DNA from: Alphaproteobacteria bacterium
Lineage (GTDB): Bacteria > Pseudomonadota > Alphaproteobacteria > JAAXGF01
DNA: 64,000 nt
Direction: 5' to 3'
Assembly (NCBI GenBank): GCA_963555825.3
Contig: CAUVXB020000002.1
Location: 480,001 to 544,000, forward strand
The translations under genes and the position numbers were made by a program. How positions within the stretch are numbered: the first letter of the stretch is position 1; each line of letters starts with the position of its first letter. The notes beneath the pieces are model-generated. The model was not told the origin of the DNA, searched no databases, and saw only the letters and a program-made list of their open reading frames with translations. Shown here piece after piece: positions 54,885-55,420 of the stretch.

Positions 54885-55420
54885 CCAAGATGTTCAGAGT
54901 TCCGAGACAGACAAGCTCGTTCGCGAGCCTGCCTGTCGGGGGGCGGTCAGGTATTTCGCAAGAAATTCTCGATCGCCGGGCGGTTGATCCGCCTCCGCCC
55001 CGCACCGGGCTGTTCGCCCAACGCCAAGCGGCCTCCGGGTCGCCGACGCGGGCAGGCGAACGGGGATTGCCAAACGCCAAACGGTCTTCGGACCGTCGAC
55101 GCGCCCGGCAGTCGGGTGCCGACCCCTCGGGGACGGTTCCACCCACCGCCACGGAAGGTGCATCCTCGGATGCACCAACCGCTGGCCGGTAGGTCCGGCT
55201 AAGGATGGAATTGGATATCTCGCCTAAGGGCAGCGCGCCTCGCAAGGGGCAGCCGCCTTCATCGCCGACGATGGCTCTTCCCGGGGCACTCGTCCGGCAA
55301 TGAAAACGGCCAGCCGCCTGCCGGCTTTCGCCAACAGGAGTCTGACCGGCTCCAGAGACGCCAGGAGTGTCCCGCCCGGACACGTAGCGTTGGCCTAACG
55401 GCCTCGCTCCTGGCGTCTCG
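54885..55420 (+). ncRNA. Candidate large structured non-coding RNA, family not recognised
   Basis: Multiple UUCG/GCAA-capped hairpins, long-range closing stem, 13-bp terminal stem, upstream TTGACA. Confidence 0.7.

Follow-up and report, generated by a model that had tools for sequence, protein, structure and literature searches.

To our knowledge, only about a dozen classes of large, ornate bacterial RNA have been recognized, and several such classes have proved to be ribozymes, ribonucleoprotein (RNP) cores or self-assembling cages. The described systems that stand closest to the locus reported here are OLE, whose gene adjoins oapA, ROOL and GOLLD on the RNA side and, on the DNA side, the clusters of DnaA boxes that lie outside the replication origin (oriC), such as datA, DARS1/2 and the DnaA-regulated promoters of dnaA, mioC and nrd in Escherichia coli. 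We know of no case in which any of datA, DARS1/2, dnaA, mioC or nrd controls the gene of a large structured RNA.

Here, we analyzed a 64,000-nucleotide (nt) stretch of DNA, the window, from an uncultured alphaproteobacterium (assembly GCA_963555825.3, contig CAUVXB020000002.1, positions 480,001 to 544,000 of the forward strand). Coordinates are those of the window unless they carry the prefix C1 or C2 for the two contigs of the genome, the window being part of C2. An earlier note, made from the sequence without database searches, had proposed that positions 54885-55420 encode a large stand-alone noncoding RNA (ncRNA) in the OLE/ROOL size class, possibly of a new family. Comparison with Rfam, covariation, reading-frame analysis and transcript data all support this proposal. 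We consider it very probable that a large, highly structured and abundant ncRNA outside the Rfam 15 families is encoded here by a gene of its own, and this RNA probably represents a new class of functional RNA. It is carried by Alphaproteobacteria, whereas OLE, ROOL and GOLLD belong to Bacillota or phages, and it has no sequence or structure match to the Rfam models of these three.

RESULTS

The RNA gene, delimited by conservation, covariation and RNA contigs, occupies 54812-55432 on the + strand, ~620 nt from its predicted start to its U-rich tail, within an intergenic gap that measures 1,035 nt in the window sequence. Its 5' start lies ~75 nt upstream of 54885, so that the boundary given in the earlier note has to be moved. 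Twenty public sequencing runs from eight studies contain the stretch, some of them labelled as sponge metagenomes, and six of the 20 are RNA libraries, each with about half of the words of 54700-55500. Four RNA runs (X15, X16, X17 and X19) were compared with 54400-55900. A 580-nt contig of X15 spans 54826-55382 and then runs into Illumina adapter, a contig of X16 spans 54827-55364 before its adapter, and one of X19 spans 54826-55388. X17 yielded many contigs, with a word depth of 2,875-27,909 over 54859-55368, of ~80 in 55369-55419, of zero over 54400-54807 and 55420-55521, and of 1-10 over 55522-55674. No RNA contig of the four runs covers either neighboring gene (54400-54807 and 55675-55900 remain uncovered), which is not evidence that these genes are silent.

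The transcript is discrete and abundant and measures at least ~560 nt. Of the + strand transcript that the earlier note presumed, the libraries thus bear out the RNA itself, while the strand, the contigs being strandless, comes from the sequence features given below. The shared contig start at 54826-54827 falls 14 nt past the predicted transcription start, and the contigs stop just past hairpin a of the 3' junction P14. These ends could be processing sites, or structured ends could have been lost, as is usual in random-primed libraries; as a guide to where the RNA really ends they are weak.

The fold of this RNA is kept by compensatory changes while its sequence drifts to 45% identity. On the + strand, the minimum free energy (MFE) of 54885-55425 is -282.5 kcal/mol, compared with -237.4 ± 7.35 kcal/mol for 100 dinucleotide shuffles, none of which folds as well; this RNAfold check, suggested in the earlier note, came out in favor of a structured RNA (z = -6.1). 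A nested model was drawn with RNAalifold from the seven-sequence group G1b and is given here in window coordinates. Because the long-range helices that RNAalifold predicted for group 2 were in conflict when groups were folded singly, this G1b-derived model was tried on all sequences. The model has 203 pairs; on a MAFFT alignment made blind to structure, with 22 sequences of four groups, they were 75.0% paired, as opposed to 68.3% in shuffled alignments (0/500 as high) and 39 to 47% when partners were slid; 116 of the 203 pairs changed on both sides, and the covariation score was 0.298 versus 0.198 after shuffling, a value that again no shuffle out of 500 reached. One measure, that of further pair types, was reached by 34 of the 500 shuffles.

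The covariance model R1 covers the 3' 199 nt, and the results for the 5' and middle parts rest on the MAFFT alignments. In an R1-fitted alignment of 41 distinct 3' domains, distant ones included, the model was 85.2% paired versus 74.2% in shuffles, with 57 of 69 pairs changed on both sides and 0/500 shuffles as high. Covariation among homologs, another check that the earlier note had put forward, is therefore strong. G-U combinations outnumber A-C combinations at paired positions (542 versus 272 in the 22 sequences and 227 versus 82 in the 41), and from this excess, the conserved promoter and the U-tail we infer that the + strand is the transcribed one. Matches of R1 on the reverse strand score only 21 to 26 bits.

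The earlier note had seen no landmark motif of a known RNA, and Rfam 15 agrees. A cmscan search of the whole window (4227 families, among them OLE, ROOL, GOLLD, HEARO, raiA, group I and II introns, cobalamin and other riboswitches) at gathering scores returned only a tRNA at 25467-25538. With permissive settings (E ≤ 10), 54600-55750 gave four noise matches of 16.9 to 18.8 bits, against cut-offs of 32 to 100 bits, and ARAGORN made no tRNA-like or transfer-messenger RNA (tmRNA) call on 54500-55800. The housekeeping RNAs of this genome map away from the locus: the only RF00010 match (RNase P RNA) lies at C2:327909-328318 (274.1 bits), the RF01849 match (two-piece tmRNA) at C2:3187533-3187867 (262.4 bits), and the RF00013 matches (6S RNA) at C1:2210609-2210767 and C2:27081-27239. 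The two 6S RNA matches score identically (59.3 bits), which suggests a recent duplication or a segment repeated on both contigs. The literature within reach of our search, which leaves out a large part of the full texts, held no description of the RNA.

The RNA part of the locus is single copy in its own genome (6.04 Mb in two contigs), as seen both by DNA search and with R1, which matches it once at 168 bits. A DNA search of 40 relatives found its 3' end (~55263-55480) in 10 of 12 same-family genomes and the region of upstream DnaA-box-like sites in three same-family genomes, at matching distance. A 3'-domain motif occurred in 30 stretches among 185,579 species genomes; the 13 with the full conserved context are all metagenome-assembled genomes labelled Alphaproteobacteria or Proteobacteria bacterium, and the remaining 17, in unrelated phyla, match by chance. 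A stricter motif retrieved 16 metagenome contigs, all genuine, of which 15 also show the 5' motif at the distance expected for it and one is truncated. Full-length copies measure 540 to 644 nt, with pairwise identities of 44 to 100%, and family members range from about 450 to 950 nt once distant loci are included.

R1 matched 10 of 13 genomes of the bacterium's own order (a single family), 11/11 in the order of group 2 (seven with a second, weaker match), 6/6 in the order of G091 and 1/1 in that of G013. In a sample of the class with one genome per family, 10 of 150 other families had a match (E ≤ 0.01, 39 to 141 bits), while a sample of 150 genomes from the phylum had none; nor was there a match in plasmid or phage collections. 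The RNA family spans at least four small alphaproteobacterial orders with near-complete penetrance. In distant matches, P14 is preserved through compensatory substitutions such as GUAUCU/AGAUAC for GUGUCC/GGACAC.

All copies share the 5' end (A/U)CGCGARAGCGUCGRRG, a variable G+C-rich body with many hairpins capped by UUCG, GCAA or CUCG, and a 3' module that hardly varies and leads into a U-rich tail. In the comparative fold, helix P1 encloses a multi-helix domain (P2), the hairpins P3 and P4, the long-range helix P5 over P6 to P9, and P10 over P11 and P12; hairpin P13 and the three-way junction P14 lie outside P1. The 5' strand of P1 (UUGCGUGAAAGC, 54811-54822) pairs with GCUUUCGCCAA at 55324-55334 and closes the entire body; it is 82.9% paired over the 22 sequences, with 3/10 pairs changed on both sides. 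Its 5' bases have a local alternative, a small GAAA hairpin, and P1-type pairing of the two ends recurs in the folds of distant family members. P1 replaces the closing helix proposed earlier (54892-54903/55337-55346), since 55337-55342 pairs with 55348-55353 in the covarying P13 and 54899-54905 pairs with 54824-54830 in P2.

The P2 domain (54824-54905) is held by this outer helix, which is 91.7% paired with 5/6 pairs changed on both sides. Inside it are a helix that involves the conserved GAAUUUCC segment and, at 54856-54874, a hairpin with a UUCG cap. Hairpin P3 (GACAGACAAGCUCG-UUCG-CGAGCCUGCCUGUC, 54906-54937) has 7 of its 14 pairs changed on both sides in group G1b and 9 of 14 over the 22 sequences, and P4 (GGCGGUC...GCAA...GAUCGCC, 54942-54977) has 14/16. 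The 5' strand of P5 (GGCGG, 54979-54983) pairs over a long range with UCGCC at 55220-55224 and thereby closes the middle domain; it is 90.8% paired in the 22 sequences and 83 to 94% in each of the four groups, with 4/8 pairs changed on both sides. A local helix, 54978-54983 with 54989-54994, competes with P5, and the comparison did not separate the local from the long-range pairing. Within this domain, P7a (55010-55063, stem 55010-55018/55055-55063) and P7b (55065-55113) are similar branched hairpins that look like a lineage-specific tandem duplication of one RNA module. In the alignment, the extra module is confined to the window's group; most relatives have one, and in L052 and L065 this site is occupied by another insert. 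P8 (55115-55140) and P9 (55141-55194, apical part 55152-55181) both have a CUCG loop, and 5/8 and 9/12 of their pairs, respectively, changed on both sides.

The 3' sub-domain (55225-55320) is closed by the weak helix P10 (55225-55229 with 55317-55320). It holds P11 (55237-55250, GCAA loop) and the long hairpin P12 (55253-55309), in which 6/6 and 15/17 pairs, respectively, changed on both sides in the model-fitted alignment. P13 (GGAGUC-UGACC-GGCUCC, 55337-55353) has 4 of 5 modelled pairs so changed. The seven local structures picked out in the earlier note all recur at the same positions in both the MFE and the comparative folds: 54915-54928 lies within P3, 54953-54966 within P4 and 55081-55096 within P7b, while 55010/55063 is P7a, 55157-55176 is P9 and 55237-55250 is P11. 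The last of them, a perfect 13-bp stem (55355-55367/55407-55419) around two sub-hairpins, corresponds to P14 and does hold two hairpins, with a length of 12 to 13 bp and a closing stem that we model as 12 bp.

P14 (55355-55419) is the most conserved part of the RNA, its sequence being invariant over long runs. Its 12-bp closing stem (55355-55366 with 55408-55419) encloses hairpin a (55367-55383, loop CGCCC), a 3-nt linker and hairpin b (55387-55407). Across the 41 distinct sequences, the stem is 99.2% paired, with 7/12 pairs changed on both sides, and hairpins a and b are 99.6% and 91.1% paired. The U-rich tail (GAUUAUUUAUCAG, 55420-55432) that follows is, together with P14, a probable intrinsic termination site, and most homologs have a U-rich tract within a few nt of the P14 stem. 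A terminator scan, whose loop limit was 3 to 8 nt, did not flag the pair.

Upstream of the gene stands a sigma-70-like promoter on the + strand, TTGTCT-17-GATAAT (54777-54805; -35 at 54777-54782 and -10 at 54800-54805), whose position predicts a transcription start at ~54811-54813. Its hexamers match 9/12 positions, and it is the only promoter-like site in 54600-55700, where shuffles give a mean of 0.4. Relatives have a TTGCA-type -35 and a GATAAT-type -10 at the equivalent place, within an A+T-rich stretch. The TTGACA that the earlier note had considered as a promoter element exists at 54850-54855 and lies inside the transcript, the RNA contigs starting at 54826.

Upstream of this promoter, on the + strand, is an array of DnaA-box-like 9-mers (54679-54747), scored against TTATCCACA, which we take to be the DnaA-box consensus. 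It consists of a near-perfect extra box (GGTGGATAA, 54679-54687, one mismatch to the consensus), a weak 9-mer (AGTGCATAG, 54687-54695), a perfect one (TGTGGATAA, 54699-54707) and an inverted near match (AAATCCACA, 54739-54747) that starts 40 nt after the perfect box and continues into the conserved extension CACAAGAAATT. The box centers lie near -68, -109 and -122 relative to the predicted start. Relatives share the arrangement of a direct box, 12 nt, a direct box, 40 nt and an inverted box; the full triad occurs in 7 of 14 divergent loci, and all 14 have at least one box with no more than one mismatch within 1.1 kb upstream, the genome background being one box-like site per 15 kb (397 in 6.04 Mb). 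Among the same 14 loci, the distance from the inverted box to the RNA 3' end is 517 to 1053 nt. In L109, L104 and L107, a DnaA-box-like 9-mer (e.g., TTATCCACAAG in L109) is also found past the terminator, and the gene is bracketed by boxes. By match to the 9-mer consensus alone, the array at 54679-54747 is a putative binding site for DnaA.

In the bacterium's own genome, the composite box arrangement is found only here and in palindromes at the ends of insertion sequences (IS). These palindromes are perfect and 49 nt long (C1:1394079-1394127 and C2:3286815-3286863), are bounded by TGTGGATAA and TTATCCACA, and adjoin a transposase-like open reading frame (ORF); they are probably IS ends that mimic DnaA boxes. 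A second DnaA-box cluster at C1:1394079 was rejected as such, being one of these IS-end palindromes.

The gene is flanked upstream by a 73-amino-acid ORF with a lipobox-like LVAC (54419-54640, no Pfam match) and downstream by a convergent short-chain dehydrogenase (SDR) gene on the - strand (55676-56440, adh_short, E = 3.5e-52). About 30 nt past the RNA gene, the conserved near-palindrome CAACAACATATTGTGG (55449-55464, no strand) has the form GCAACAAnATATTGTGG in 7 of the 9 stretches compared from relatives; L016 and L017 lack it, and the stretch of L009 ends before the site. Farther downstream, 55499-55660 is a dispersed repeat of ~120 to 160 nt with 42 other matches on both contigs at 76 to 95% identity, and related genomes carry weaker copies of it. 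It is an insertion between the RNA gene and the SDR gene, which directly follows the RNA in relatives.

Genomic context varies among lineages. In 6 of 9 distant families, sdhC and then sdhD lie divergently, directly upstream of the RNA (Sdh_cyt, E = 1e-32 to 1e-36), and in distant families a convergent mesaconyl-CoA hydratase gene lies downstream, a frame that group 2 shares. In the bacterium's own family, the neighbors are the SDR gene and others, and its own sdhDC and hydratase genes, at C2:2.382-2.387 Mb, are separated by an IS and other genes, and the RNA is missing from the interval. In this family, therefore, the RNA has moved and has taken its boxes along, and so the boxes belong to the RNA gene and not to sdh. 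Beyond the synteny with sdhCD and mesaconyl-CoA hydratase, the neighbor analysis identified no conserved protein partner. Group 2 has a tandem paralog, a second RNA gene ~0.7 kb upstream (L038 ~2881-3570). It comes with a separate box array and promoter, has a ~555-nt body and ends in the same 3' junction (72 to 76 bits); a degenerate third junction fragment follows (to 3640 in the L038 region). The paralog is also present in L039, L027, L072 and L090.

DISCUSSION

We propose a model for this locus as an RNA gene. In this model, transcription would start near 54812 from the sigma-70-like promoter on the + strand and end at the U-tract past P14, which may double as a terminator and as a 3' protective or recognition module. 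DnaA bound at the putative array (~-68 to -122) would tune the promoter, the box positions fitting activation better than occlusion, and such tuning would couple the RNA level to the replication or growth state. As our best guess, the RNA would work in trans, in a structural or RNP role, rather than regulate in cis, because the neighbors differ between lineages while the boxes, the promoter and the 3' module always travel with the RNA.

Several observations weigh against parts of this model or soften its support. The RNA contigs carry no information on strand or true ends, and they stop at 54826 and at 55364-55388, thus omitting the 5' strand of P1 and the 3' half of P14; should the mature RNA be a processed form, the role of P1 and P14 would be limited to its precursor. 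On the reverse strand the fold is just as good (z = -7.4), and folding energy therefore does not pick the strand. Both tests of covariation lean towards structure, the 203-pair model because it was drawn from 7 of the 22 sequences tested and the 41-sequence alignment because it was fitted to R1, while MAFFT shifts depress the P6 and P10 counts outside group G1b. Furthermore, several long-range pairings have local competitors, the U-tail is weak in the L029/L057/L058 group, and 3 of the 13 genomes of the bacterium's own order, with completeness of 94%, 93% and 57%, have no R1 match. Finally, a protein other than DnaA could read the box-like sites.

The locus might instead be primarily a DNA element, a DnaA-binding cluster like an origin, datA or DARS, with the RNA as a by-product of transcription that serves supercoiling or DnaA handling. 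Such an element would account for the number, orientation and spacing (12 and 40 nt) of the boxes beside an A+T-rich stretch, which hold across lineages, and for the further box-like 9-mer past the terminator of some of them (TTATCCACAAG in L109); the locus, at 534.7 kb of C2, can also be set beside the cumulative GC-skew minimum of that contig at ~570-576 kb. A by-product, however, needs neither a body that keeps its fold by compensatory changes nor great abundance, and there are only about three boxes. In Alphaproteobacteria, oriC is expected beside hemE, near parAB/gidAB, at a strand-skew switch. Here, the origin neighborhood is 1.57 Mb away (hemE at C2:2.110, gidA at 2.122 and parB at 2.125 Mb), the gene-orientation skew and that of FtsK-orienting polar sequences (KOPS) do not indicate 535 kb, and in the relatives G041 and G048 the RNA is 292 and 425 kb from hemE and 407 and 555 kb from dnaA. 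On these grounds, an oriC at the locus was rejected, and the DNA-element explanation as a whole appears improbable to us. The skews of C2 disagree among themselves, with a GC-skew minimum at ~570-576 kb and gene-orientation and KOPS minima at ~2.6-2.85 Mb; dnaA lies at 1.24 Mb in this genome, and C1 shows a clean terminus-like maximum at ~0.78 Mb. Some 77 identical 301-amino-acid ORFs match a DnaA-type ATPase model (40.7 bits), one of them in the window at 36970-37269 (C2:516970-517269). They look like IS21-type (IstB-like) helper ATPases, which would mean a massive IS expansion, and with so many identical copies in the genome the skews are unreliable.

The size and ornate fold of the RNA resemble those of RNase P RNA, tmRNA, 6S RNA, OLE, ROOL, GOLLD, HEARO and group I or II introns, and since Rfam models were trained on other phyla, a very divergent member of one of these classes might have been missed by the covariance models. 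We regard this as very unlikely: nothing exceeded 18.8 bits even with permissive filters, the genome encodes its RNase P RNA (274 bits), tmRNA (262 bits) and 6S RNA (59 bits) elsewhere, ARAGORN made no call, and the locus contains no transposase, reverse transcriptase or interrupted host gene. We give just as little credence to a cis-acting part of a neighboring mRNA, whether a long leader, a 3' untranslated region or an antisense RNA to the SDR gene or sdhC. The RNA is indeed a neighbor of sdhC in 6 of the 9 distant families and of the SDR gene in the bacterium's own family; yet it runs away from sdhC and towards a convergent gene downstream, has a promoter of its own and a terminator-like end, is covered by RNA contigs that reach neither neighbor, and stays intact while its neighbors change. 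It is also very unlikely that the locus is protein coding or a repeat or mobile element, despite stop-free frames of up to 205 codons on the - strand and the dispersed repeat just downstream (55499-55660). At 68% G+C, long open frames are to be expected, no single frame stays open in every homolog, and comparison with the 96%-identical relatives shows no clear third-position excess of substitutions (codon-position counts [2,5,3], [4,1,6] and [4,5,10] for L067 and [4,4,3], [4,4,5] and [5,6,6] for L070), so that the earlier note's view that the stretch holds no credible protein stands. All 42 other genome matches of the locus are confined to 55499-55660, leaving the RNA part single copy, and plasmid and phage collections contain no match.

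An RNA gene being the explanation that we prefer, the RNA merits study as one that is abundant in environmental RNA and almost universal in the orders that carry it. Its anatomy is clearly modular, in that the 5'/3' clamp is conserved, the body varies and the 3' junction is invariant. Within the limited reach of our literature search, no second large structured RNA is known to us whose promoter carries a conserved array of DnaA boxes, and these features give a concrete and testable link between replication control and an RNA. R1 is a ready covariance model for annotating genomes in which the locus is a blank intergenic kilobase. A bolder scenario, which we put forward as a speculation that is unlikely to hold in full, is that of a new class of large functional RNA (a ribozyme, an RNP scaffold or a self-assembling RNA) whose synthesis is DnaA controlled and whose ancestral place was beside the succinate dehydrogenase operon. 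Such an RNA would link replication or cell cycle state to central metabolism in several uncultured alphaproteobacterial orders, sponge symbionts included, and its 3' junction would be a dedicated protein binding site or processing signal.

Among known systems, OLE, ROOL and GOLLD, as far as the literature within our reach describes them, are similar in being stand-alone genes of ~0.5 to 0.8 kb with a multi-domain covarying fold, high expression, a narrow host range and a function that is not evident from sequence. Unlike them, the alphaproteobacterial RNA has its sequence conservation almost only in the 3' three-way junction, a body that varies two-fold in length (450 to 950 nt) and a DnaA-box-like array at its promoter and, unlike OLE beside oapA, it has no conserved partner protein gene adjoining it. 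Like 6S RNA, RNase P RNA and tmRNA, it is abundant, single copy and near-universal in its carrier lineages, whereas all three of these are encoded elsewhere in the genome and their models have no match here. With respect to transcription, the locus is similar to datA, DARS and the DnaA-regulated promoters in having few boxes of fixed orientation and spacing away from the origin, and, as in those promoters, the positions of its putative boxes upstream of the promoter are compatible with transcriptional control by DnaA. The layout of direct box, 12 nt, direct box, 40 nt and inverted box is nevertheless the RNA family's own, unlike those of datA, DARS, dnaA, mioC and nrd. The 3' end of the gene is similar to an intrinsic terminator in placing a G+C-rich stem directly before a U-rich tract, but here the stem closes a ~65-nt three-way junction that is nearly invariant across orders, a far stronger constraint than termination would need.

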